This document shows, piece after piece, positions 1 through 16,289 of a DNA stretch of 16,289 nt; the stretch's first letter is position 1; every line of letters begins with the position of its first letter. The notes beneath the pieces are model-generated. The model saw nothing but the letters and a program-made list of their open reading frames with translations, was not told where the DNA came from and made no database searches. This DNA comes from a virus, in the IMG/VR virus record IMGVR_UViG_3300028920_000020; one strand, given 5' to 3'. The translations under genes were made by a program, and so were the position numbers.

Positions 1-127
1 GACTAACTGGCGGTATCGGCCCACTTAACTCTTTTACCGTCGGTCAGATGATTAAGGAAGTTTATGCCGGCAGGTTAAAGTCCCCTCTCACTTCTTTTGT
101 TAGAGCTTGGTCGCCAAAACAAACCGA
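1..127. repeat. Left copy of the 127-bp terminal direct repeat, identical to 16163..16289; circular-contig overlap
   Basis: Base-for-base comparison by eye: GACTAACTGGCGGTATCGGCCCACTTAACTC...GGTCGCCAAAACAAACCGA occurs at both ends. An ORF reads in frame through the junction. Confidence 0.95.
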
Positions 128-1394
128 TCAATATTTCAACGATAATCAAAAGTATTTAATCAGAATGGCGTCAGAGGGAGTCACCCCCAGAGTTCAGGAC
201 TACCAGACGATGTATGAGAACGTCGTCAACTCCCCCACCCTTAAAGAAAAGTTTGGTGAGTTTTGGGAAAACGCCTTCAACAAAGCCACGTTTAAGCGAT
301 TCATGCCCATGCTAGAACTTAACTTGTTTAAAGATGAGTTTGACAGTGCTGTTAGATCAGGCATGTCGGAAAAAGAAGCCTCTAAACTAGCAGGAGAGAC
401 AACCAAAGCATGGTTCGGGATGGTTGACAAACTATCAAGACCCAAGGTCACCGATGATGTGATTTCTACTTTCTTCTTTGCTCCAACTTTTCGCCAAGCT
501 ATGGGGCAATTCTGGATAAACAACGTTAAGGGAGTACTTAAGATTACTGATCCAAAGTACAAATACAACCGACGTCATTTGGTTGGTCTAGCGATAGCAT
601 ACGGACTTATGAACCAGCTAAATAAAAAACTTACTGGCCATTCAATGAAAGACAACAAAAGTGGTAAAAAACTTTCTCTTGAGATCCCAAAGGGAGACAA
701 CACCAGCATTTATATTCCACTCGGCCCGTCAGTCATGACTCTACCCAGAACGGCTTTTGAGATGGGAAGCGCTATGGCGAAGGGAGATTTAAAAACCGCC
801 GGTCAACAAGGTGGCAGATTCTTTTCAACTGGTATCAATTTAGGAGCGGATGTAGCCAGTGGTAAGACATGGTACGGAGGCAATATTTACGAAGACGACG
901 ACACTGCTGGCCAGAAATGGGGCAAAGTGGCCGGTTATACGGCAGAGCAAATGCTTCCCGGTTATTTCAGCAACATGATATCAGTCATGCAAGGCAGAAA
1001 GACGTTGGCAGAAGGCTTTTTAGGAGCCATGGAGTTACCTGTTTATCCCAGCAGGTCAAGTGTCTATATCAGAAAGGACTATAAGGATGACTTTGCCAAA
1101 TTAGTAGAAGCCGGAGAAGACAAAAACAAGGTTCGGAACTTCATCGCATACGAGCAGGAGTTGGACGACTTAAGTTCGGTTAAGTTTAAGAAAATGGCTC
1201 ACCAGCTTATAGCTGAAGGAGAACCCACCGACAAGGTTCTGGAATATGTCCAGTGGCTATCAGATATGGATAAACTAGATAAAAAACTTAAAAAGATATC
1301 AGAGGATGACGACTTAACCCATGCGGAAAAGGTAAAGAAAGCCAAACCAATAATTACCAAACTTAAGAAGTTAGAACAACAAAGAGGCAACTAG
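1..1394 (+). CDS. C-terminal ~464 codons of a ~1,164-aa wrap-around protein of unknown function (continuation of 14062..16289)
   Basis: The ORF-track entry 48..1394 begins at an internal Met (MIKEVYAGRL...). The same peptide is read in frame at 16210 within the open frame from 14062. Frame at the left end: first full codon at position 3, stop TAG at 1392-1394. The C-terminus is K/E/D-rich and looks like coiled coil. Confidence 0.85.
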   Translation, partial: LTGGIGPLNSFTVGQMIKEVYAGRLKSPLTSFVRAWSPKQTDQYFNDNQKYLIRMASEGVTPRVQDYQTMYENVVNSPTLKEKFGEFWENAFNKATFKRFMPMLELNLFKDEFDSAVRSGMSEKEASKLAGETTKAWFGMVDKLSRPKVTDDVISTFFFAPTFRQAMGQFWINNVKGVLKITDPKYKYNRRHLVGLAIAYGLMNQLNKKLTGHSMKDNKSGKKLSLEIPKGDNTSIYIPLGPSVMTLPRTAFEMGSAMAKGDLKTAGQQGGRFFSTGINLGADVASGKTWYGGNIYEDDDTAGQKWGKVAGYTAEQMLPGYFSNMISVMQGRKTLAEGFLGAMELPVYPSRSSVYIRKDYKDDFAKLVEAGEDKNKVRNFIAYEQELDDLSSVKFKKMAHQLIAEGEPTDKVLEYVQWLSDMDKLDKKLKKISEDDDLTHAEKVKKAKPIITKLKKLEQQRGN

Positions 1395-1433: not shown

Positions 1434-1841
1434 ATGTTGTTTACACCGGCTCAAGAAGTCTTTATCAAAAAACTTACTCCCCGCCAGTTGGTTCTTACCT
1501 CATTTTACTTTTCCGGTCAGCCAAAGTATTCCAGTATTGTCCGTGTTTGGGGTAGAGAGAAAAAGGGATTAGACACCGAAGTTAAGAAGATGAAAAAAGA
1601 GCGATTGATTGAAGACTCCAGAGATGAGAAGGGCAAACCAACATTAAAGCTAAGATACCCAAAAGGTTTTGAGGGCATGGACGAACTGATTATTCAATTC
1701 CCCGACTTGGACAGTGACGAATGGGATATTATGGCCGACACCATGGCAGAGACTAAGAAGTTAGTGAAGTTAGCTTTAGAGATGGGCTTTGACAAACAAA
1801 CACTTGAGAAAATGTATAAGGGCTTGAATGTTGAGATTTAA
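1434..1841 (+). CDS. Hypothetical protein, 135 aa
   Basis: Closed ORF, co-oriented and follows the large ORF after 39 nt. No motif recognised; weak SD. Confidence 0.55.
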   Translation: MLFTPAQEVFIKKLTPRQLVLTSFYFSGQPKYSSIVRVWGREKKGLDTEVKKMKKERLIEDSRDEKGKPTLKLRYPKGFEGMDELIIQFPDLDSDEWDIMADTMAETKKLVKLALEMGFDKQTLEKMYKGLNVEI

Positions 1842-4649: not shown

Positions 4650-4692
4650 CTCGCCCCAGTCGCATGATTCTATCTGAAAGGTAATCTTTGCC

Positions 4693-4863
4693 ATGGAGGC
4701 CGCTAGAGGGTTGAGTAAGTTACTTGCGTACGCCGTACGCAACTCTCTACCGAACGCTCCCAAATCGGGGGAAACGAAGGATGAAGGGATTAGAAATTTG
4801 GCTCGTGAGATTGGTAAATCAGAAGCCTATATCCGTAACCACCTCGACCTCCTCACCGACTAA
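4693..4863 (+). CDS. 56-aa ORF resembling the ParB/Spo0J helix-turn-helix region alone (mini-ParB or ParB remnant)
   Basis: Below the ORF-track size cutoff. Translation: MEAARGLSKLLAYAVRNSLPNAPKSGETKDEGIRNLAREIGKSEAYIRNHLDLLTD. The segment LAREIGKSEAYIRNHLDLL matches the canonical ParB HTH pattern (LA-x2-G-K-S-x3-(I/V)-x-N-x-L-R-L-L). There is no ParB N-terminal domain. An in-frame TGA at 4675-4677 closes the frame upstream. Confidence 0.45.
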   Translation: MEAARGLSKLLAYAVRNSLPNAPKSGETKDEGIRNLAREIGKSEAYIRNHLDLLTD

Positions 4864-4940
4864 AAATCTTTCCTTCTGATAACCACCCAAACACCGATCA
4901 GGACAAGACCGGCGATGATCATAATTCTTGATATCGGCAT
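4860..4940 (-). CDS. 26-aa single-pass membrane peptide (MPISRIMIIAGLVLIGVWVVIRRKDF), start-stop coupled to the upstream Zn-ribbon gene
   Basis: The minus-strand ATG (4940-4938) overlaps the TAA stop (4942-4940) of ORF 4940..5182 as TAATG. It has a hydrophobic core flanked by R and RRK, with stop TAG at 4862-4860. Confidence 0.4.
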   Translation of the reverse strand: MPISRIMIIAGLVLIGVWVVIRRKDF

Positions 4941-5182
4941 TATTTAATTCTCTTAATGGCCTTTTCTAGTGTTGCCAGTTTCTTTTTTAGTTCCGCTTTT
5001 CTTAATTCTTTACGTCGTTGTCTTTGATAAGCATTGATTTTCTCTCGGCTCTTTTTTCGGTACTCTTTTTTCCCCTCTAAGTATTTTTTTCGGTTGGTCT
5101 TTTTCCAATGTTCGTGTTGACACCGGTCAGAGCAAAATTTAGGCCTTTTTGTCTTTTTTTTACAAACTATACATCTATTCAT
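4940..5182 (-). CDS. FCS/TRASH-like zinc-ribbon protein with a highly basic helical tail, 80 aa
   Basis: CIVC-x10-FCSDRC matches the C-x2-C...FCS-x2-C zinc-ribbon signature. The remainder is K/R/E-rich (KKYLEGKKEYRKKSREKINAYQRQRRKELRK...). Confidence 0.6.
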   Translation of the reverse strand: MNRCIVCKKKTKRPKFCSDRCQHEHWKKTNRKKYLEGKKEYRKKSREKINAYQRQRRKELRKAELKKKLATLEKAIKRIK

Positions 5183-5193
5183 TTTTCTTATAA

Positions 5194-5299
5194 AACCAGT
5201 CCCCTATCGGGGGTGTCTGTCCCCAAAATTGATATTATAGGCACAAATAACCAGTCCCCTATTGAATAGGGGAGGGGATTGAATAACCGAGCAATAACC
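5194..5299. promoter_or_regulatory. Divergent control region with direct repeats, a 19-bp perfect palindrome and AATAACC repeats
   Basis: AACCAGTCCCCTAT at 5194-5207 and 5249-5262 (55 bp apart). CCCCTATCGGGG at 5201-5212. Perfect palindrome TCCCCTATT-G-AATAGGGGA at 5255-5273. AATAACC at 5246, 5282 and 5293. Minus-strand TATAAT at 5239-5234. Confidence 0.55.
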
Positions 5300-5339
5300 G
5301 CCATTGGCTAATTTTAACACCTATGGCGTAATATTAAGA

Positions 5340-5501
5340 ATGGATGTAAAAAGGGCAAGGAAGTTATTGAAAGGGGAGGGGAGAAGAATGACAGACGAAG
5401 AGGTGAGAGCTACCATAAAAATCGCCACGCTTTTGTCAGATACCGTAATTGACAGTTGCTTGAAACAGACAACCACCAAAAACCCGCCCTCTCACAATTA
5501 G
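5340..5501 (+). CDS. Small hypothetical protein (53 aa from ATG 5340; 37 aa if ATG 5388 is used)
   Basis: The ORF-track start at 5304 is a TTG. ATG 5388 is preceded by GGGGAGGGGAG (SD about 8 nt upstream), so the shorter form may be the real one. No motif recognised. Confidence 0.4.
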   Translation: MDVKRARKLLKGEGRRMTDEEVRATIKIATLLSDTVIDSCLKQTTTKNPPSHN

Positions 5502-5575
5502 GAAAATTGTTCGTCGGCGAGTATTTTGGATGGTATCTAGTGGTAAACCATCTTTTGCCATTGTTAGACTAAGTT

Positions 5576-5890
5576 ATGAAGCACAACGCCCGGCAACTTA
5601 ATTGGATTTTAGGGGAAATTGAGCAAACAGGTTATATCCAATTTGACGACATAAGGGACTACTACAACGATGGCAAATTGAGTGCCAAACACTTAGCCGC
5701 CGCCAAAAAGAGCGTCAACTTTTTGATTAAAGCTGGATGGATAAAGAAAAGAAAAGGCCGGTTAGTTTTTACCAAGCTGGGGAGGGTATCGTGGGGTTTT
5801 GCCGGTAACGCTAGGTTTATAAAAACAATGATAGAGAAGGAATTTAAGTTTTTGGTAGCCGGGTGGGACGTGGGGAAGAGGAAGGACTAA
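5576..5890 (+). CDS. Hypothetical protein, 104 aa, possible winged helix
   Basis: Closed ORF. The segment SVNFLIKAGWIKKRKGRLVFTKLG resembles a recognition helix plus wing. Confidence 0.5.
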   Translation: MKHNARQLNWILGEIEQTGYIQFDDIRDYYNDGKLSAKHLAAAKKSVNFLIKAGWIKKRKGRLVFTKLGRVSWGFAGNARFIKTMIEKEFKFLVAGWDVGKRKD

Positions 5891-5998
5891 AACGACCACT
5901 GGTTGATCACATTCTTTCCTTTTCCGGCCTTCTGATTGGCTTTTAGGAGGATCTTTTTTAGACGATTAAGTTTCAGGCTTGTTTCTTCTGTTTTTTTC

Positions 5999-6412
5999 TT
6001 ATTTTTCCTTTTTTTCATATTTTGGTGAACGAGTAACGGGCCGGGGACAAATCAAGTGATTGCCATAGGAATAAACCATAATGGCGTACTTGGAAGACCT
6101 GCCACTACCCAATTTTATGGGAAGTGAGTGATAGTTTGCCATAAAGACTTTTTCTCCCTTTTTTAGATCACGGTATATCTTGATCAAGGGGATGTTAGTT
6201 TTTGTCGCAAATTCTTTTGGGGTATAGATGACGGTAATCAGCTTTTTGGCGACAGTTTCACCCATGGCTAGATAAAAATTTTTCCCGGCTTTTGTTATTC
6301 CGTTTTCTTCCAACAGACCTTTTTTGTCCCATTGCCAGATTGTTTGGGGGGTGACGTTTTTAGCTTTTGCGATTTGCTTGACGTTACACAGCCCAATGCT
6401 AATTGTTTGCAT
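5999..6412 (-). CDS. DNA-binding regulator with two tandem excisionase/MerR-type HTH motifs, 137 aa; candidate repressor
   Basis: Two HTH motifs: VKQIAKAKNVTPQTIWQWDKKGLL and TPKEFATKTNIPLIKIYRDLKKGEK. The gene is transcribed divergently from the replication operon. Confidence 0.65.
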   Translation of the reverse strand: MQTISIGLCNVKQIAKAKNVTPQTIWQWDKKGLLEENGITKAGKNFYLAMGETVAKKLITVIYTPKEFATKTNIPLIKIYRDLKKGEKVFMANYHSLPIKLGSGRSSKYAIMVYSYGNHLICPRPVTRSPKYEKKEK

Positions 6413-6417
6413 ATCTT

Positions 6418-6447
6418 ATTTTAAGCCTTTTGATAACCAGTTGTCAA
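6418..6447 (-). promoter_or_regulatory. Minus-strand promoter TTGACA-18 nt-TAAAAT ending 5 nt before the ATG at 6412 (leaderless candidate)
   Basis: Minus-strand read: TGC-TTGACA-ACTGGTTATCAAAAGGCT-TAAAAT-AAGAT-ATG. The -35 lies in the imperfect palindrome TTGATAACCAGTTGTCAA (6430-6447). Confidence 0.5.
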
Positions 6448-6564
6448 GCACAAGCCTAAAAAGAAGCCCAAAACATAGTTTTCTCTATGGTGTTGAATAG
6501 GGTATTCCGTTTATCAGAAAATAGTATATAGCCAAAAAAGGCAATTAAAAATTTAGAAAAAATT

Positions 6565-6858
6565 ATGGAAGAAATAGAGAAAGACCACTTTACCACCACG
6601 GATGTTTCCACGGCTTCGGCTTTGTTGGCGACTGGAAAAGTTTTGTTTGACGGCTTGAAAGAATCAGGAAATGGCAGAAAGAATATATGTCTAACCCCCA
6701 GACAGACAGCTTTGGAGCTTTACAGCGACTACAGGAGAGGGGAATTGATGGTAAACGCCAGTGACAACGGCCGATGGGTACAGAAGTTGAAGAAAGAAAT
6801 ATTTGGAGGAATCAGTAGTTTAAGAAATGGAGGCCAAGATGGTGAAATCGAAATCTAA
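6565..6858 (+). CDS. Small protein, 97 aa, DUF5659-like
   Basis: The pattern F-T-T-x-D-x-x-x-A-S-A-L-L-A-x-G...NICLTP...YRRGELMVNA...LKKEIF resembles the DUF5659 family common in phage and metagenomic elements. This comes from recollection only. Confidence 0.45.
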   Translation: MEEIEKDHFTTTDVSTASALLATGKVLFDGLKESGNGRKNICLTPRQTALELYSDYRRGELMVNASDNGRWVQKLKKEIFGGISSLRNGGQDGEIEI

Positions 6859-7483
6859 ATTTACACAAATTCCCAACGATATAATCGAAGCTTTGTGCCG
6901 GACTAATCTAACAGCCACCGAGCTTTCCATAGCTTTTATTGTATTGAGAATGACCTATGGTTATCAAAGAAAATCCAGCGAAATCAGTATCAGTTACCTG
7001 ATGAAAGCGACAGGAAAATCACGCCCTTCAATTACTAAAATGACCAATCAACTAGTTAAGAAGGCGATACTAGTTAAGCAGACTTTACTAGGTAGAACTT
7101 CAAAACTAGGTATTAACCCAAACATAGGGCAATATTCGCATACTAGTAAAGTAGACGATACTAGTAAAGTAGACGATACTGAACTAGTTAAGCAGACTTT
7201 ACCCAATAAAGAAATAAATAAAGAGAGAAAGAAAAAGAATCGCCATTTGAATAAGCAAGACATGGAGAAGATTGCCAACGACTTACGTGTGGTGGTGACG
7301 ACGGTAGAGTATGAATACCAAAAAATGCTTGATTGGCTGGCGTCAACTGGCAAGGTGCGAAAAGATTACGTTGCGACACTCCGAAACTGGATAAGGCGAG
7401 GGATGGAGGATGGCCGAATTAAACCAATTAAAAGTTATGAGGAGCAAGTCCGGGACGAAAACCCAGACATAAAAATTATATGA
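6839..7483 (+). CDS. Lambda O-like (Phage_rep_O N-terminal domain) replication initiator, ~214 aa
   Basis: FTQIPNDIIEALCRTNLTATELSIAFIVLRMTYGYQRKSSEISISYLMKATGKSRPSITKMTNQLVKKAIL matches the Rep-O wHTH signature. The ORF-track start is 6827, but ATG 6839 has GGAGG 5 nt upstream. The gene contains iterons internally. Confidence 0.8.
   Translation: MVKSKSKFTQIPNDIIEALCRTNLTATELSIAFIVLRMTYGYQRKSSEISISYLMKATGKSRPSITKMTNQLVKKAILVKQTLLGRTSKLGINPNIGQYSHTSKVDDTSKVDDTELVKQTLPNKEINKERKKKNRHLNKQDMEKIANDLRVVVTTVEYEYQKMLDWLASTGKVRKDYVATLRNWIRRGMEDGRIKPIKSYEEQVRDENPDIKII
7051..7240. repeat. Candidate origin of replication: five or more ACTAGT(T/A)AAG iterons followed by an A/G-rich, AT-rich tract, inside the initiator gene
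   Basis: ACTAGTTAAG at 7051, 7069 and 7183. ACTAGTAAAG at 7142 and 7160. A 20-mer ACTAGTTAAGCAGACTTTAC at 7069-7088 and 7183-7202. An 18-bp tandem TACTAGTAAAGTAGACGA at 7141-7158 and 7159-7176. AATAAAGAAATAAATAAAGAGAGAAAGAAAAAGAAT at 7205-7240. Confidence 0.65.
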
Positions 7484-10537: not shown

Positions 10538-11096
10538 AGTTTGTAAAATTAAGAAACCAGCCAGCCTGATTTTTGATCATACAGGGACTAGACACGCTGT
10601 TTGTGACAAATGTCGACCACAGATTACCGTTCATGCAATTCTTGCAGAGATGGCTATTCAAAAATCTTTTCTTGAAGAAAAACTTTTTAAATATATCCAA
10701 TATCTCAAAGAAAACCCTCATTCCCAAAACACATACCAAATATCACAAAGCTTCAACGAAGATTTCGAAACGATGATGTCTCGATTAAGTCAAATTATCC
10801 TTGTCAAACATTTTGGCAGAGTGGCAAAATCCGATCAGGGATGGATTCAGCCCGATGTCCCACTTCCGGTCATAAAACCCAAAACCAAGCCTAAAAAGAC
10901 AAAAAAACCCCTTGTTAGCGACGATTTAAAGCCCAAAAAAACCAAGCCTAGTACAAAATTACCTAAAAAAGACAAGGAATTATTACACGCCGACAGGGAA
11001 ACTAAACCCAAAGCTAAAAAGACACCCAAAAGCAACAAATATAATCTTACAGATTCAACAAAAAAGACATGGCAAAGAGCAAACAAAAAAACTTAG
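10524..11096 (+). CDS. Zinc-ribbon protein 3 with a long K/P-rich low-complexity tail, 190 aa
   Basis: CEVC-x19-CDKC with GGAGGAG SD 4 nt upstream. The C-terminal third is KPKTKPKKTKKPLVSDDLKPKKTKPSTKLPKKDK...KPKAKKTPKS, resembling a histone H1-like tail. Confidence 0.7.
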   Translation: MSLCEVCKIKKPASLIFDHTGTRHAVCDKCRPQITVHAILAEMAIQKSFLEEKLFKYIQYLKENPHSQNTYQISQSFNEDFETMMSRLSQIILVKHFGRVAKSDQGWIQPDVPLPVIKPKTKPKKTKKPLVSDDLKPKKTKPSTKLPKKDKELLHADRETKPKAKKTPKSNKYNLTDSTKKTWQRANKKT

Positions 11097-11602
11097 GGGG
11101 CAGGCCTTCCAAGTACAAACCAGAATATTGCGATCAAGCTATTAAATATTTCAACATTGAGCCTCATTTTGAGACACCAGTTGAGACACAAAAAAAAGGC
11201 GTCGTCGAGACAAAGATTAAATTTATCCCAGCAGATCTTCCAACACTTGCCGGCTTTGCTAAAAAGATCGGTGTTTCCAAAGATACTTTGAATGAATGGC
11301 GTAAGGTATACCCAAAGTTTTCCGTTGCTATTAAAAAGGGAAAGACCGCCCAAGAGCATATTTTGATCACAAACGCCCTAAAAGGTGGCTACGCCCCGGC
11401 CTTCTCTATTTTCTTTGCCAAGAACAACATGGGATGGAAAGATAAACAGGAGCAGTCAGTAAACATGACCGTTTCCCCTTACGACAACCTATCAGATGAT
11501 CAGCTTGACGAGGTGTTAGAGAAGAAGTTCGGTGAATGGCAGGCAGATAAGAAACGATCAAAACAATTATTAGAATCTAAACAGGAGGCAATCAATGGAT
11601 AA
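11069..11602 (+). CDS. terS: Small terminase subunit, HTH type (Sf6 gp1-like), 177 aa
   Basis: The N-terminal GGRPSKYKPEYCDQAIKYF, then LAGFAKKIGVSKDTLNEWRKVYPKFSVAIKKGK (HTH), then FFAKNNMGWKDKQE. Together these match the conserved GRP-x-x-Y-x-PE ... W ... F ... and LKN...W+DK pattern of this TerS family. Confidence 0.7.
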   Translation: MAKSKQKNLGGRPSKYKPEYCDQAIKYFNIEPHFETPVETQKKGVVETKIKFIPADLPTLAGFAKKIGVSKDTLNEWRKVYPKFSVAIKKGKTAQEHILITNALKGGYAPAFSIFFAKNNMGWKDKQEQSVNMTVSPYDNLSDDQLDEVLEKKFGEWQADKKRSKQLLESKQEAING

Positions 11603-11837
11603 CACATTAAAAGCTTTACTTGAAGCCTTGGAGGTTATGGCCAGTCGTAAGCAGGTATGGATTGTTAGTTACGATAAGAAAACCAATAGTGCGGTCACCG
11701 AAGATGGCAGACCCTTTAATCCGCTAATCGCACTATTCGATTGTCTAGTGGTTTATAAGTCCGACATACCCCTCAATGTCTTAAAAGAATTACAAGACAA
11801 ACAAGAGTTTTTTATTAACAAATTACAAATTAAATAA
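11595..11837 (+). CDS. Hypothetical protein, 80 aa
   Basis: AGGAGG SD at 11583-11588. Overlaps the terS stop by 8 nt. Confidence 0.6.
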   Translation: MDNTLKALLEALEVMASRKQVWIVSYDKKTNSAVTEDGRPFNPLIALFDCLVVYKSDIPLNVLKELQDKQEFFINKLQIK

Positions 11838-11842
11838 ACAAT

Positions 11843-12271
11843 ATGCCAAACAAAAACAACACAAAAACACCTCTAACTACAGAGCAACAGATTCACGCCA
11901 ACGAGTTAAGCCGATCCACTGTCACCGGCTTCAAAGACGGCCAATTTATTAGAGAAGATGTGGCCACTCGCTTCGAGAGACAAAGAAACGAAGCCAAAGC
12001 CATGACAAACAAAAAGCACAGTTGGAAACAGGTTAAAACTCAACGCCAGTTGAACATGGAGGAAAGAGCCAAGGAGAGCCAATCTTTTTATGATTTAAGA
12101 CAGGCGAGACAAGAGCAAGCCCAATCCGCCCTTGATAGATTAGCCAAGCAAGTAAAGTCCGAGATCCCCACACCCAAGGCGTCAGTCATGAATGCAAAGG
12201 AACGCCCGGCAAATTATGAATATTTGTCAGATACAGAAAAGAGACTTATTGATTCAGCATTAAAACAATGA
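11843..12271 (+). CDS. Hypothetical protein, 142 aa, charged and helical
   Basis: Closed ORF in an operon context. Q/R/E/K-rich central region. Confidence 0.6.
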   Translation: MPNKNNTKTPLTTEQQIHANELSRSTVTGFKDGQFIREDVATRFERQRNEAKAMTNKKHSWKQVKTQRQLNMEERAKESQSFYDLRQARQEQAQSALDRLAKQVKSEIPTPKASVMNAKERPANYEYLSDTEKRLIDSALKQ

Positions 12272-12504
12272 CCAACCCAAATCCTATTTCACCATCGACA
12301 ATCATGACCGAGAACGCCGTTTTAGAACGTCTTGATATTATCCAAGATCAGTTTGCACATTCATCTAACGATGTTCAGGCACGATTAGACGAACAGAAAC
12401 TAATTCATGATTTTATCAGGGCTTTAACAATCCCCGGTGGAGTAAGAGAACCTAAGAAATGTGCCGAAGCTTTGGTTGAAAGCACACATTTCATCAACAT
12501 ATAG
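12268..12504 (+). CDS. Hypothetical protein, 78 aa
   Basis: ATGA overlap with the upstream gene. Confidence 0.55.
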   Translation: MTNPNPISPSTIMTENAVLERLDIIQDQFAHSSNDVQARLDEQKLIHDFIRALTIPGGVREPKKCAEALVESTHFINI

Positions 12505-12575: not shown

Positions 12576-12728
12576 ATGACTAAATCAAAAGTATTTCGAA
12601 TCATATCGCTTAAAGGTTCAGCTCCGGATGCCCCAATTAAAAAGGGTTTACCAAGCAAGAAACATTTAGCTTTTCTAGCAAAACAAAACCGCAACCCGAA
12701 GAAACAATTTCCAGAGGGAGGTAAATAA
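12576..12728 (+). CDS. Possible 50-aa basic protein (MTKSKVFRIISLKGSAPDAPIKKGLPSKKHLAFLAKQNRNPKKQFPEGGK)
   Basis: Below the ORF-track cutoff. Its TAA (12726-12728) overlaps the ATG of the 444-aa gene as TAATG, which would fill an otherwise 223-nt gap. Confidence 0.35.
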   Translation: MTKSKVFRIISLKGSAPDAPIKKGLPSKKHLAFLAKQNRNPKKQFPEGGK

Positions 12729-14062
12729 TGGCATTTGCTAACGCATATTACGACGAGCAACAAAATCAAAACATTGCTCCTACTCTATCTCAACTACAGG
12801 GCAATTTCTCAGAACCTCTAAATGCTGGTGTAGCCGCCACAGGCACAGGTGACGCCGACACTTACTGGAATCAAGGCTGGAACATGGGTTTTAATAATCC
12901 TTCTACTGGCTATTCAGGAAGTGACGTAAATGAACAAGCTGGCTATATTCAAGGTCAGAAAGACTATTGGCTAAGAAATCCCCAAACAACCACTAGCCCT
13001 ACAACGAATAACAATCCTCAACCAACCACCCCCCAACCGACAAACAACACCTCAGGCGAACTTTCATTTGACGATATTTACAACCAGGTTTATCCTGGAT
13101 GGGGAAGACAGGAGGCATATAACGACTGGGTGGCAAAGGGAAAGCCCCAGCCCACAATCGGAACAGGTGCTAATGGTCAACTTTCCGAAGAACAACTAGC
13201 TCAACAACTAACTAATGATTTAAATTCAGCCTATCAGCCAGCTATGGATGTTTTAGGTCAACAAGAGCAATACCTTCGTGATGCTCAACCCGCTTCCGAA
13301 AAAGCCATTCAAGATCAATTTTCTTTACGCCGAGGCGAACAAGAGGGAGATTGGAAAAGTGCTCAAGAACAATCCGAGTTAACCCAGCGAAAACTTTGGG
13401 ATGAAAAAGAAAACGTACTCGACCAATCACGCCGGTTATACGATGAGTTACGCCGAGGAGCAAGACAGCGATTTGGTGGTTCTTCATCCGCAGGTGAGGC
13501 AGTCAATACTCTTTTGGGTTTGGAACAACAGCGACAAATGGGAGACACCAAAAGAACTTACATGAACAACATTGCAGAGTGGGAACGATCAAAAGCCGAC
13601 ACCGAGAGAGCTTATAAGCAAAATGTAGCCCAGCTTAATCTGGCAAAAGACGAAGCAATTCGAAAATCTCAAGACGCTTTTAATGCCGGTATGCTTCAAA
13701 TTGCTCAAAGTAAAGCAGGACTAATGACCGAAAAAGGGCTTCGACGACTAGACCTACTAACCAACCTCCGTGATTCGATTATGAAGGCTCAAGCAACAGC
13801 TCAGGAATGGCAGGATAAACTTTCATACCAGCGGGAATTAGCTGAGATGAATTTTGCCTACAGACTCCAGGAAATTCAAGCAATGGCTAAATACAAGACC
13901 TATGCCCCAACCAAATCAAGCTACTCCACAGTCGACGTTGATGGCACAACTAAAGTATTTGATAAAACCACGGGGCAAGTTAGCGATATAGGTAGCGCCC
14001 AGGGCCAAATTGGTTTGCCTTCAACATATAAACAGTATTACGGACTTGATGAGGAGGTTTAA
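12728..14062 (+). CDS. 444-aa protein of unknown function: Q/N/G-rich N-terminus, P/T-rich linker, long coiled-coil C-terminal half
   Basis: Very strong SD (GAGGGAGG). Features include NNNPQPTTPQPTNNT and a heptad-like charged region from about aa 170 to 400. No enzymatic motif recognised. Confidence 0.8.
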   Translation: MAFANAYYDEQQNQNIAPTLSQLQGNFSEPLNAGVAATGTGDADTYWNQGWNMGFNNPSTGYSGSDVNEQAGYIQGQKDYWLRNPQTTTSPTTNNNPQPTTPQPTNNTSGELSFDDIYNQVYPGWGRQEAYNDWVAKGKPQPTIGTGANGQLSEEQLAQQLTNDLNSAYQPAMDVLGQQEQYLRDAQPASEKAIQDQFSLRRGEQEGDWKSAQEQSELTQRKLWDEKENVLDQSRRLYDELRRGARQRFGGSSSAGEAVNTLLGLEQQRQMGDTKRTYMNNIAEWERSKADTERAYKQNVAQLNLAKDEAIRKSQDAFNAGMLQIAQSKAGLMTEKGLRRLDLLTNLRDSIMKAQATAQEWQDKLSYQRELAEMNFAYRLQEIQAMAKYKTYAPTKSSYSTVDVDGTTKVFDKTTGQVSDIGSAQGQIGLPSTYKQYYGLDEEV

Positions 14063-16289
14063 TGCCCTCATTCAACGAACTCTTTCAAACAGCCCTTAGC
14101 AAGCTAGTCAATTCCAAGCCAGTATCAACAGTTCGAAGTGCTGGTCAAAACGTCCTTCAAAGTGCTAAGCAGGGCTACGCTCAATGGCAAGCTAAACCCT
14201 ACAATCAACTGGTTAAAAATATCGGCTCGACTATATCTCAAAAGGTAGAGTCTGCTATCCCGGGTGGTTACGAAGGAGCAAAGCAACGTCTATCTCAAAC
14301 CAAACCCATTCAATACTCACCGTTTGGCTTTATTAACGAAGCCCCACGCAACGCCTCAGTCTTGTTTGGTAAGAACGCAGACATAGCCGAACACGGCCTT
14401 AGGGGGATGATAGACCCCATCGGTTTAGCCAATAAAACCACTCAATATCTCAACCCTTCCTATAATCAATTATTCCAACCTACCACTCAAAGAGAAAAAA
14501 CAGCTAGAAAGGTAGGACAATCAATATCCGGAACCATAGCCACTGCTCCTCTTGGTGGGCCAAATATGGCCGTAAATGTTGGTAGGCGTGCTATTCAGGG
14601 AACTTTACTTGGTACCGGCATGGGGCTAGCTGGTAATGCTTTATCAGGCAATCCCTTAACCCAAGATCTAGACAAATCAGCACTTCAGGGTCTCTCCAAC
14701 TCATGGCAACTTTCCGTAACCAACCTTATAGCCGACAAGATAGGAAGTTTTATACCTAAACTCAAAGGCACAACGTCAGGACAGTTGGATTTAACTGGCC
14801 AACTTCTAAAAAACCAAGCCAAGATGGGAGCAGACACCAAAGCTCTACTCACCAAAACAGCCAAAGACTTATTTTTAAGAGCGATGGTAGAAACAGGGAC
14901 GGAGACGACATGGTTTTCAGCCTTCGATGAAGAAGATAAAAGAAAGTTTCTAGAAAAGTGGTGGTCTAACCTTCCGGGTAACTTCTTAGGTAACGTATTT
15001 TTTGGCAGTTTAGCCTTTACTAAAAGGGCCAGCATTGACGCCAACCCCCAACTAATTATGGACGCTAAAATAGCCTTTCAGAAGACCATGAAGAATATGT
15101 TTGGTGGCAGTCAATACTCTCAACGTGGTGGTGTTGATCCTAAGTATGTGTTTGGAGAAGAAAAACTACCTTGGGAAAAACAAGATCCCAACTCTCCCAA
15201 ACGTAACAGGAAAGAACCCTTCACCGCCAAGCGTGGTGCTGGTAGCTATTCACAAGATCCCACCGTCGACAACCCACTTTTAAAACAAGCTAAACAGGAG
15301 TCTTACAAGTTCGATGACAGAGCTGACATTGACAGAATCGTCACCCTTGGAGAATTACACGAGTATGAGGTAGGCAAGAAGCCAATCAAACAGCTAATCA
15401 ATCGAATCCTTAAGCCATTAAACAACGCCCCGGACAACATTAAGGAAATGATGACGGAATGGAACACCAAACTGATGAAAGGCAAAGTGAAGGCTAATGT
15501 TTTAGCTAAAGACTTTTCCAACATTGATGCCGAGACAGGCTGGAAGTTGACCCAATACATGCAAGACCCAACCCCAGCCAATGCTAGAAAGCTGAAGTTC
15601 GATGTTGAGAAATACGCCCCGGATATTAAGAAGACACGAAAGCTTTTAGACTTCTATTACGACCAAGCTCAAAAGAATGGGGTTGATCTAGGCTACAGAA
15701 AAGACTATATGCCACAGGTTTGGGAGGAAACACCCGGACAGATTGACGCCAAAGTTAGAGGTCTAGGAACTAAACCAGCATTTGCCCAAGAAAGAAGGAT
15801 CCCAAATTATCAGGAAGGTTTAGAACTGGGGCTAACCCCACGCTACACACACCCCGGCCAGCTACTCGCTGATTATCGATACAAACTAAGCAAATCAGTG
15901 GCTAACAAGAGACTAATGGCCAAGCTCTTAGATACAGGCTATTTAGTGCCTTCTAGTGAAGCCCCAGCTGATTGGAAACAAATCGAAGCACCATATCTCC
16001 CCAAAGCTACTATGACGATGGCAGACAGGGAAATTGTCAGCAACTATTCAGCCCCTCCATCTATTGCCGATTCACTTAACTCAATCTTTACCAACGACAA
16101 ATCAGGCCTTGGTGAGCTGGTTGAAATGACAGCAAAACTATCAAGCAAAATCCAAGAAGTTAGACTAACTGGCGGTATCGGCCCACTTAACTCTTTTACC
16201 GTCGGTCAGATGATTAAGGAAGTTTATGCCGGCAGGTTAAAGTCCCCTCTCACTTCTTTTGTTAGAGCTTGGTCGCCAAAACAAACCGA
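14062..16289 (+). CDS. N-terminal 742 codons of the ~1,164-aa wrap-around protein (continues at 1..1394); unknown function, glycine-zipper hydrophobic segment
   Basis: ATG 14062 overlaps the preceding TAA as TAATG, with GAGGAGG SD 4 nt upstream. I translated every codon from 14062 to 16289 and found no stop. The segment SISGTIATAPLGGPNMAVNVGRRAIQGTLLGTGMGLAGNALSG is reminiscent of tape-measure or ejection-protein hydrophobic stretches. Confidence 0.85.
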   Translation, partial: MPSFNELFQTALSKLVNSKPVSTVRSAGQNVLQSAKQGYAQWQAKPYNQLVKNIGSTISQKVESAIPGGYEGAKQRLSQTKPIQYSPFGFINEAPRNASVLFGKNADIAEHGLRGMIDPIGLANKTTQYLNPSYNQLFQPTTQREKTARKVGQSISGTIATAPLGGPNMAVNVGRRAIQGTLLGTGMGLAGNALSGNPLTQDLDKSALQGLSNSWQLSVTNLIADKIGSFIPKLKGTTSGQLDLTGQLLKNQAKMGADTKALLTKTAKDLFLRAMVETGTETTWFSAFDEEDKRKFLEKWWSNLPGNFLGNVFFGSLAFTKRASIDANPQLIMDAKIAFQKTMKNMFGGSQYSQRGGVDPKYVFGEEKLPWEKQDPNSPKRNRKEPFTAKRGAGSYSQDPTVDNPLLKQAKQESYKFDDRADIDRIVTLGELHEYEVGKKPIKQLINRILKPLNNAPDNIKEMMTEWNTKLMKGKVKANVLAKDFSNIDAETGWKLTQYMQDPTPANARKLKFDVEKYAPDIKKTRKLLDFYYDQAQKNGVDLGYRKDYMPQVWEETPGQIDAKVRGLGTKPAFAQERRIPNYQEGLELGLTPRYTHPGQLLADYRYKLSKSVANKRLMAKLLDTGYLVPSSEAPADWKQIEAPYLPKATMTMADREIVSNYSAPPSIADSLNSIFTNDKSGLGELVEMTAKLSSKIQEVRLTGGIGPLNSFTVGQMIKEVYAGRLKSPLTSFVRAWSPKQT
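16163..16289. repeat. Right copy of the 127-bp terminal direct repeat (identical to 1..127)
   Basis: See the left copy. GACTAACT begins at 16163. Confidence 0.95.

Follow-up and report, generated by a model that had tools for sequence, protein, structure and literature searches.

A 1,164-residue candidate internal virion protein encoded across the contig junction of a 16-kb replicon without capsid genes

A gene split by the contig junction

The stretch of DNA analysed here, which we refer to as the window, is 16,289 nt long. Its final 127 nt (16163..16289) repeat nt 1..127 exactly, and this direct repeat marks a circular (or terminally redundant) molecule with a unit length of 16,162 nt. The features discussed below are as follows, with P numbers denoting homologous proteins and L numbers denoting contigs.

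11069..11602, plus strand: small terminase subunit, TerS (GP3_package; Pfam 2.4e-12, PHROG terminase small subunit 9e-20)
12268..12504, plus strand: 78-aa gene upstream of the pair, conserved in small elements (tblastn matches to L001 and L003)
12728..14062, plus strand: 444-aa partner gene (homologue directly upstream of the big-gene homologue in small elements and full phage contigs)
14051..14064, plus strand: GAGGAGG ribosome-binding site (14051-14057) and TAATG stop/start overlap with the 444-aa gene (14060-14064), from the sequence
14062..16162, plus strand: 5' part of the 1,164-aa gene, codons 1-700 and base 1 of codon 701 (open frame; P0001 colinear)
14230..15321, plus strand: module A, a Gly-rich amphipathic helical N-terminal module, aa ~57-420 (41-43% identity to P0003-P0006; invariant columns; phmmer domains)
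15322..16162, plus strand: module B, first part, aa 421-700 (phmmer E down to 1e-196; 38-48% identity to P0019, P0023, P0026 and others)
16163..16289, no strand: duplicate of nt 1..127 (exact 127-nt terminal direct repeat, an assembly overlap)
1..1394, plus strand: 3' part of the 1,164-aa gene, rest of codon 701 to codon 1164 and stop 1392..1394 (in-frame join once the 127-nt overlap is removed)
1..1064, plus strand: module B, second part, aa 701-1055 (same basis as the first part)
1065..1391, plus strand: Lys/Asp/Glu-rich helical tail, aa 1056-1164 (composition; AF2 helices 1059-1162; weak similarity to the P0003/P0004 tails)
1434..1841, plus strand: 135-aa gene just downstream of the big gene, conserved in small elements (tblastn matches to L003, L004 and L005)

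Frame 1 is free of stops from the ATG at 14062 to the end of the window (742 codons). Joined to 1..1394, the segment 14062..16162 yields 3,495 nt, or 1,164 codons, with zero internal stops before the TAG at 1392..1394; the chance of such a run at the base composition of the window is ~7.5e-32. The automated ORF list gave only 48..1394, the tail of this gene, because the lister omits ORFs that run off an end. The original prediction had proposed a hidden gene of ~1,164 aa across the junction, with ORF 48..1394 as its C-terminal piece, and the joined translation confirms it. The contiguity of the two ends on which that model depended is evident from the 127-nt overlap and also from P0001 (1,165 aa, contig L001), an orthologue that aligns end to end at 69% identity and runs unbroken and colinear over the junction residues. 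Nucleotide identity to this orthologue by codon position (0.705/0.833/0.468) is that expected of a coding sequence under purifying selection. The strong ribosome-binding site and TAATG coupling that had been noted are likewise present: GAGGAGG lies at 14051..14057, and the ATG of the big gene overlaps the TAA stop of the 444-aa ORF, so that the two genes are, to judge from these signals, translationally coupled. The junction-split gene of 1,164 residues is real. That a single gene occupying a fifth of the replicon was nevertheless hidden by a linear ORF call is a practical lesson.

Modules, predicted structure and family of the protein

The protein is composed of two modules and a tail. Within module A, the Gly-rich stretch at aa 150-200 singled out earlier contains many invariant G/T/N columns; its 19-residue hydropathy peak is only 0.83, with no classical transmembrane helix, and hydropathy analysis of the whole protein found neither transmembrane helices nor any strongly hydrophobic helix. 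Module B is a strongly conserved core of ~635 aa (aa ~421-1055), 38-48% identical to many proteins, and the central landmark of the original prediction, DYMPQVWEE...PAFAQERRIPNYQEGLELGLTPRY, is among its most conserved stretches. The C-terminus is charged, as described (19% Lys and 21% Asp+Glu over residues 1056-1164), and is predicted to be helical.

Neither module nor the charged tail is represented in Pfam or PHROGs. The earlier failure to recognise a family was thus upheld for the 1,164-aa protein: sequence searches of Pfam, PHROGs and PDB yielded nothing above threshold, the residual noise consisting of FlxA, LPD38 and, on the charged tail, a transcriptional-regulator PHROG. LPD38 (PF18857) scored E=0.057, its 13.9 bits falling short of the cut-off of 27; it was absent from 8 close homologues and from 8 proteins with the alternative cores B' or B'', and reached 1.9e-4 in 1 of 32 family members. 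PDB was also searched with profiles of the complete family alignment, of the 444-aa family and of the core at the gp16 position, in each case without a match. An SLT domain was sought by Pfam, and Phage_Mu_F and TMP domains by Pfam and PHROGs, and none was detected. Tape-measure, portal, HK97 or jelly-roll capsid, MuF and lytic transglycosylase identities, all listed as candidates in the original prediction, were found neither as Pfam matches nor as PDB fold matches.

The orphan status that had been implied does not hold. An exhaustive profile search recovered 3,018 representative proteins at E<=1e-3 (1,274 at E<=1e-30), and phmmer with the protein alone as query gave core matches down to 1e-196 and N-module matches down to 1e-72. 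A word-indexed homologue search returned 6, 4 and 6 proteins in three tries and overlooked homologues with E of 1e-190; its low count is therefore not evidence of rarity. Searches by tblastn with the protein, its core and P0019 gave no match in GenBank phages or in PLSDB plasmids (72,556 plasmids), nor did the coat protein of a related full phage match GenBank phages. Scans of IMG/VR and JGI metagenomes with the N-terminal module found only short contigs, and among species-representative genomes only two MAG contigs matched, one from Ca. Saccharibacteria and one from Acidobacteriaceae. This is best read as a large, unannotated family of podovirus proteins, one that has no curated model or solved structure and whose cores sometimes bear nuclease or JAB inserts. 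It is modular, with module A shared by proteins carrying any of at least three alternative cores of ~600 aa. One such group has a core matching "internal virion protein D", which stands at the gp16 position in Autographiviridae phages. Comparisons among cores B, B' and B'' by hhalign were not significant (probability 0.4% for B against the gp16-position B'), so we do not claim homology between core B and the gp16-position core.

An AF2 model of the protein had a mean pLDDT of 73.8, with the core mostly at 75-98 and module A at ~60-80 over aa ~110-290, falling below 50 over most of aa 290-420; a first run on only 7 sequences had given a mean of 37.8 and an unusable model. Foldseek with the good model returned no PDB match at E<=1e-3, only helical-bundle noise. 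Against BFVD there were 38 matches at E<=1e-3 (best 3.3e-13, probability 1.00), mostly to LPD-annotated proteins, although the BFVD targets are predictions rather than solved structures and TM-scores were modest (0.2-0.5). Most of these matches are to pieces of giant proteins that also bear helicase, LT_GEWL, zeta-toxin or methylase domains. Inserts occur in homologues that share the core: PBECR1 in P0029 and P0038 and a RadC JAB domain in P0100 and P0044. The protein of the window is best read as an effector-less chassis, in which only a disordered linker (aa ~350-420) occupies the place of these inserts.

Gene order in the replicon, its small relatives and full phages

The big gene lies in a same-strand run ~2.5 kb downstream of TerS, the sole recognisable packaging gene of the replicon. 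Other genes of the window include PrimPol-DnaB, Rep_O and ParA, together with ORFs of DUF736-like and RHH type, the latter with a weak NikA-like match. No TerL was found in the window by tblastn, and its Pfam and PHROG annotation includes no coat, portal, adaptor or tail gene. The original prediction passed over this absence of capsid, portal, tail and TerL genes, which is what makes the presence of the big gene unusual.

A second complete circle, L003 (15,494 nt), likewise lacks coat, portal and tail genes. At least four diverged small elements retain the reduced set of 78-aa gene, 444-aa gene, big gene and 135-aa gene, with identity of the big protein down to 41%. Close relatives of the window have TerL directly upstream of the cassette, and recombinases are found in L003 and L004. 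Scans for tRNA genes in the window, L001, L003 and L004 detected none. The occurrence of the gene and its partner on complete 15-16-kb circles without any capsid gene was unexpected.

The 444-aa protein has a disordered P/T/Q-rich N-terminus, a long coiled coil and an acidic C-terminus, and it gave no match in Pfam, PHROG or PDB. A comparable coiled-coil protein of ~400-450 aa accompanies the family member in full phages. On phage contigs of 20-60 kb, the homologue of the 444-aa gene is followed by that of the big gene, and both lie between portal/P22-type coat genes and an SU10-type adaptor gene. The order is SU10_portal, P22_CoatProtein, 437 aa, homologue, 233 aa, 659 aa and CHAP in L040, and P22 coat, 415 aa, homologue, SU10_adaptor and 657 aa in L039; the same arrangement is seen in L006, L007, L037, L038, L014 and L016. 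In six of these contigs (L006, L007 and L037-L040) the homologue is placed between coat and adaptor/nozzle genes, the late or virion-gene neighbourhood looked for in a polyvalent protein. Portal genes (phrog_1216, SU10_portal) are separate from the homologue in the full phages, as is the P22_CoatProtein gene in L039 and L040; L006 has a separate SLT gene after the homologue, and in the full phages a separate gene of ~280-320 aa occupies the usual scaffold position between portal and coat. The gene for the RadC-bearing P0100 itself has a P22-type coat gene on one side and an SU10 adaptor gene on the other. In an uncultivated lineage of short-tailed phages, whose portals and adaptors are of SU10 type and whose coats are of P22 type, the family apparently provides the principal large internal protein.

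Proposed role and alternative explanations

We consider the 1,164-aa protein to be, on balance, probably an effector-less internal virion (ejection or cargo) protein of the short-tailed phage type, encoded on a replicon that would need a helper virion. Of the functions suggested at the outset, a virion or ejection protein fits best, given the synteny in full phage contigs, the fold matches to pieces of polyvalent proteins and the effector inserts in homologues. We infer that the protein would be loaded into the procapsid during assembly, in the manner of T7 gp15/gp16, P22 gp20/gp16, SU10 gp20-24 and the polyvalent proteins, and would then leave through portal and tail, either preceding the DNA or together with it; with its 444-aa partner it may help to conduct or protect DNA across the envelope. 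Since the replicon has no coat, portal, adaptor, tail or TerL gene, it would depend for its transfer on the virion of a related helper phage, presumably supplying its own copies of the two internal proteins.

The ejection proteins of podoviruses have a modular, mosaic make-up and cover the size ranges ~450-750 and ~600-1,340 aa, and gp16-type proteins are described as having membrane-spanning elements (PMC8954989). The pair described here falls within these size ranges. It resembles T7 gp15/gp16, P22 gp20/gp16 and SU10 gp20-24 in comprising coupled helical proteins of ~450 and >1,000 aa in the structural module of short-tailed phages, in its mosaicism (one N-module with three alternative cores), and in that one alternative core is the gp16-position protein of Autographiviridae phages. 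It differs in that the 1,164-aa protein has no sequence, profile or fold similarity in PDB to T7 gp15/gp16 or other solved ejection proteins, and neither an SLT domain nor a clear membrane-spanning helix. The cassette also lacks a gp14-like small transmembrane protein, and the big gene is located before the adaptor gene instead of after the nozzle gene.

Packaging and injection have been predicted for polyvalent proteins (Iyer, Burroughs, Anand, de Souza & Aravind 2017, PMC5512222), and one of them, phi24B gp47, has been detected in virions and proposed as an ejection protein (10.64898/2026.04.10.717836). Like large phage-type polyvalent proteins such as phi24B gp47 and PTXU04_00025, the family is very large, mostly helical and encoded among late/virion genes, and it resembles them in the fold-level matches to predicted structures of polyvalent-protein pieces and in the PBECR1 or RadC inserts of same-core homologues. 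Unlike them, the copy in the window has no recognisable effector, peptidase or MuF domain and only a sub-threshold LPD38; its modules are not Pfam families, and its gene resides on a 16-kb replicon without capsid genes. Where a polyvalent protein combines at least two domains that differ in biochemical activity, this protein has no significant Pfam or PHROG domain.

The best surviving alternative, which we regard as unlikely, is that the replicon is what remains of a decaying phage, or a plasmid derived from one, and that the big gene is a leftover without a current role. The missing coat, portal, tail and TerL genes, the ParA and replication genes of the kind that plasmids typically have and the lack of a known helper would all agree with this. 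A leftover would not be expected, however, to remain intact over 3.5 kb with a pattern of purifying selection against a 69%-identical orthologue, nor would the same reduced gene set recur in at least four diverged small elements, one of them (L003) a complete circle.

Slightly less likely still is that the big protein and its coiled-coil partner are not ejected, and instead form a helper-hijacking factor, either a scaffold or size determinant for 16-kb capsids or an inhibitor of helper assembly. Capsid remodelling by scaffold-like proteins is known from the satellites SaPI (CpmB) and P4 (Sid); here the pair is found beside TerS on a capsid-less element, and the 444-aa protein, with its coiled coil and acidic C-terminus, is scaffold-like. 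Homologues of both genes nevertheless occupy a constant position within the structural module on ordinary 30-60-kb phage contigs, which argues that they are standard phage parts and not satellite inventions, and those phages have a separate gene in the usual scaffold position. We do not favour a helper-interference role, since the gene pair is also present in ordinary full phages.

Two further readings are very improbable. A polyvalent protein of the plasmid or conjugative-element type, moved by a secretion system and not by a phage head, might be suspected from the RadC JAB inserts in homologues, RadC being listed among the domains of such proteins (Iyer et al., PMC5512222), and from the ParA, DUF736-like and RHH ORFs, but the window annotation includes no relaxase, coupling protein or T4SS gene, the RadC-bearing P0100 is encoded between coat and adaptor genes, none of the 72,556 plasmids matched, and TerS is present, with TerL in relatives. 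The size and central position of the protein, and the TerL directly upstream of the cassette in relatives, would suit a tape measure protein or a disguised capsid building block (portal, coat or fusion) that made the 16-kb element a self-sufficient minimal virus, but the confident model has no PDB fold match linking it to a portal, HK97/P22 coat or tape measure, the capsid and portal candidates are further weakened by the separate SU10_portal and P22_CoatProtein genes of homologue-carrying phages, and those phages are short-tailed (adaptor and nozzle), types without a tape measure.

Returning to the internal virion protein that we prefer, the family is a defined target for studies of DNA delivery in such phages. 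The window combines an absence of capsid and tail genes with packaging specificity (TerS) and autonomous replication genes, as a satellite does, and the absence of capsid genes here and in the complete 15.5-kb relative suggests, from gene content, a satellite-like element. A more tentative proposal, possible though short of probable, is that the window, L001, L003 and L004 are ~14-16-kb self-replicating satellites of an undescribed kind, without capsid, portal and tail genes, and with a terminase subunit and their own pair of ejection proteins. Such elements would be maintained as episomes by ParA or would integrate, helper-built particles would be loaded with the DNA-delivery proteins of the satellite, and the alternative cores behind the shared N-module may reflect a match to different helpers. 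We know of no described satellite that carries homologues of internal virion or ejection proteins, and to our knowledge none has been seen in P4, PICI, PLE or cf-PICI elements; if the proposal is correct, these elements would show that ejection proteins can be brought along by a satellite itself. Like PICI/SaPI satellites, the replicon is ~15-16 kb in size, has its own primase-helicase, replication initiator and TerS, and lacks coat, portal and tail genes. Unlike them, the circle in the window, which would presumably depend on a helper, is kept by ParA and has no integrase, whereas L003 and L004 do have recombinases, and its close relatives carry TerL.

A gene across the junction of a circular unit

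Nucleotides 1-127 of the window are repeated exactly as its last 127 nt. Exact end overlap is a customary sign of circular assembly, and the unit is therefore a circle of 16,162 nt. When the overlap was removed, 14062..16162 and 1..1394 translated as one ORF of 3,495 nt (1,164 codons) free of internal stops, bearing out the original prediction of a hidden gene spanning the junction. As that prediction also held, frame 1 stays open from the ATG at 14062 up to the window end, and the start is coupled through TAATG to the 444-aa gene. The ORF list shows just 48..1394 because the lister skips ORFs running off an end. The features at the start of the gene, the two motifs having been read from the sequence, are:

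12728..14062 (+), 444-aa partner gene
14051..14057, GAGGAGG, just before the ATG of the big gene
14060..14064, TAATG, start of the big gene overlapping the stop of the 444-aa gene
14062..16162 joined to 1..1394, big gene, 1,164 aa

At the window base composition, the chance of an open frame this long is about 7.5e-32. An orthologue, P0001, from the independent contig L001, is 1,165 aa in length, shares 69% identity with the window protein end to end, and runs unbroken across the residues at the junction. When the two genes are compared at codon positions 1, 2 and 3, nucleotide identity is 0.705, 0.833 and 0.468, a pattern that reads as a clear coding signature. We regard the gene model as certain; even with a true terminal repeat, the gene would be contiguous in the replicative form.

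A large family with alternative cores

Searches of the window protein against Pfam, PHROG and PDB sequences gave no significant matches, in line with the earlier statement that no family could be recognised. An exhaustive HMMER search, using an alignment of six relatives from the word-indexed search, identified 3,018 representative proteins at E<=1e-3 (1,274 at E<=1e-30), and by sequence the protein is a member of a very large family, not an orphan. The word-indexed protein search itself returned four to six matches over repeated tries (six in the first) and missed homologues with E values of 1e-150 to 1e-196; claims of rarity from that search alone would therefore be wrong. Low-complexity, Lys-rich words saturating its 8,000 candidates may account for the shortfall. 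The family has no curated model or solved structure, and no cultivated representative was found among GenBank phages and PLSDB plasmids. Searching the fetched matches with the window protein alone resolved a three-part layout:

aa ~57-420, module A, Gly-rich, 41-43% identity to homologues P0003-P0006, many invariant G, T, N and W positions
aa ~421-1055, module B, 38-48% identity to more than 25 representatives, E values down to 1e-196
aa 1056-1164, helical tail, rich in Lys, Asp and Glu

Module A contains no classical membrane helix (hydropathy maximum 0.83), and the linker between A and B (aa ~350-420) is predicted to be disordered. The central region originally noted as conserved-looking (the DYMPQVWEE stretch) does fall in the very conserved motif blocks of module B. 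In various proteins module A is paired with at least three alternative cores of ~600 aa: core B, that of the window protein; core B', in P0005, P0006, P0007 and about 60 others; and core B'', in P0003, P0004 and about 45 others. Profile-profile comparison did not support relatedness of B, B' and B''. The swap of cores behind module A suggests modular exchange, which possibly serves to match different virions. Across P0003-P0154, one module A was seen with three ~600-aa cores of unrelated sequence. Cores are swapped even among small elements, with core B in the window and L001, and core B'' in contigs L003 and L004.

AlphaFold gave a pLDDT of 37.8 with a 7-sequence alignment, and a mean pLDDT of 73.8 (pTM 0.62; core mostly 75-98) with a 48-sequence alignment. 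The model is almost wholly helical, with a few short hairpins. Foldseek found no match to it in the PDB at E<=1e-3, a result that speaks against a portal or an HK97/P22 coat, against T7 gp15/gp16 and against solved folds in general. Among predicted viral structures there were 38 matches at E<=1e-3 (best 3.3e-13, probability 1.00), most of them annotated as phage "large polyvalent protein" and many being fragments of giant proteins in which helicase, lytic transglycosylase, zeta-toxin, methylase or nuclease domains are found as well.

In two homologues with the same core (P0029 and P0038, 38-41% identity), a PBECR1 nuclease domain separates the N-terminal region from the core; in two others (P0100 and P0044) that position holds a RadC-like JAB domain. 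At this point the window protein shows nothing but the disordered linker. Such domain fusions are a hallmark of polyvalent proteins, for which virion packaging and injection have been predicted (Iyer et al., PMC5512222). By architecture, the window protein is a variant of the phage polyvalent/ejection proteins, and it fails to show several formal features of membership; the Pfam LPD38 signature stayed below threshold in it (E=0.057) and was absent from eight close homologues and eight B'/B'' proteins. A DnaJ J-domain (Pfam 1.1e-6) lies near the N-terminus of another core-B homologue, P0023 (L008:1487-5173; L023-type contexts), upstream of an Amidase_2 endolysin gene, and is a further cargo-like insert in the family.

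Gene order in phages and small elements

Eighteen IMG/VR contigs of 24-62 kb, and other long contigs besides, carry core-B homologues in a stereotyped gene order: large terminase subunit (TerL), portal (SU10_portal / phrog_1216), a ~280-320-aa gene, coat (P22_CoatProtein / phrog_267), a few small genes, a 390-456-aa gene, the big gene, SU10_adaptor, a ~650-aa gene, fibre genes and endolysin. The 444-aa gene of the window is homologous to the 390-456-aa upstream neighbour; thus this coiled-coil partner and the big protein form a conserved pair within the structural module of short-tailed phages with their own portal and coat. Core B' matches the T7 gp16-position protein ("internal virion protein D") of Desulfovibrio phage ProddE, pelagiphages and cyanopodoviruses. 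The ProddE name carries no BLAST note and so appears to rest on gene position, and the B' profile did not match T7 gp16 in the PDB. Through core B', module A (but not core B) is thereby connected to proteins in the gp16 position.

The cassette that holds the big gene in the window is also found, with replication genes, in L001, L003 and L004, contigs of 13-15.5 kb. The recognisable genes of the window are:

Replication and partition: ParA and a small partner, a Rep_O-like initiator, a PrimPol-DnaB helicase
Others: HTH proteins, an HTH-HNH protein, an RHH protein, three small Zn-ribbon ORFs, and the small terminase subunit TerS (GP3_package, 11069..11602), the sole terminase gene
Cassette: genes of 78, 444, 1,164 and 135 aa

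In the window no gene was found for coat, portal, adaptor, tail, lysis or TerL, and the TerL sequences of its relatives had no match to it in six frames. In those relatives TerL lies directly upstream of the cassette (L001:3-1454, L003:5577-6995, L004:6282-7556); in the window (region compared, 11069..12504) an 80-aa ORF and TerS fill that slot. Joined in frame, the ends of L003 (14781-15494 and 1-84) encode a full-length AAA_22 ATPase of 265 aa that is colinear with L001:7605-8402, which makes L003 (15,494 nt) a second complete circle. Besides the cassette it includes TerL and a tyrosine integrase, with no coat, portal or tail genes. The window and these relatives form a family of small capsid-less elements keeping packaging genes and the internal-protein pair. 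Matches in genome collections were solely to contigs binned to one Ca. Saccharibacteria MAG and one Acidobacteriaceae MAG.

The evidence best supports an effector-less internal-virion (cargo/ejection) protein, one of a large podovirus family, as the product of the big gene. Its partner would be the coupled 444-aa coiled-coil protein, and it would be encapsidated and then ejected; we infer both steps from gene position in full phages, from fold matches and domain fusions, and by analogy with the known ejection proteins of T7, P22, SU10 and N4 and with phi24B gp47. What is unexpected is where such a gene resides: on complete circles of 15-16 kb that have no capsid genes. Since the replicon is unable to make particles of its own, it is most economically seen as a candidate satellite-like element that would use a related helper. 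We also considered that the element is a decaying remnant, and that the big protein is a capsid-remodelling or interference factor or a conjugative-type polyvalent protein. Least likely is that the protein is a portal, coat or tape measure in disguise: the PDB fold search was empty at E<=1e-3 and the full phages encode a separate portal and coat.

Other features of the replicon

The Rep_O-like gene (Phage_rep_O-like, 6827..7483) contains iteron-like direct and inverted repeats at 7046..7203, with units ACTAGTTAAG / ACTAGTAAAGTAGACGAT; repeats inside the initiator gene are likewise the arrangement of a lambda-type origin. Between 9979 and 11096, three successive small ORFs (95, 98 and 190 aa) each open with CxxC...CxxC Zn-ribbon-like motifs, the third having a long Lys/Pro-rich tail; their sole family match is a weak one to DUF7685. 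An 18-nt inverted repeat with 94% complementarity joins 6086..6103 (GTACTTGGAAGACCTGCC), within the minus-strand ORF 5999..6412, to 11099..11116 (GGCAGGCCTTCCAAGTAC), at the start of the TerS gene; by our own estimate about 0.1 such pairs would arise by chance in 16 kb. Minus-strand ORFs are confined to 4650..6565, namely 4940..5182 (Zn-binding, Lys-rich) and 5999..6412, for which L004 has a homologue. At 6447..6418 (-) is the window's best promoter-like match, and the region 4650..6565 may be a regulatory switch.
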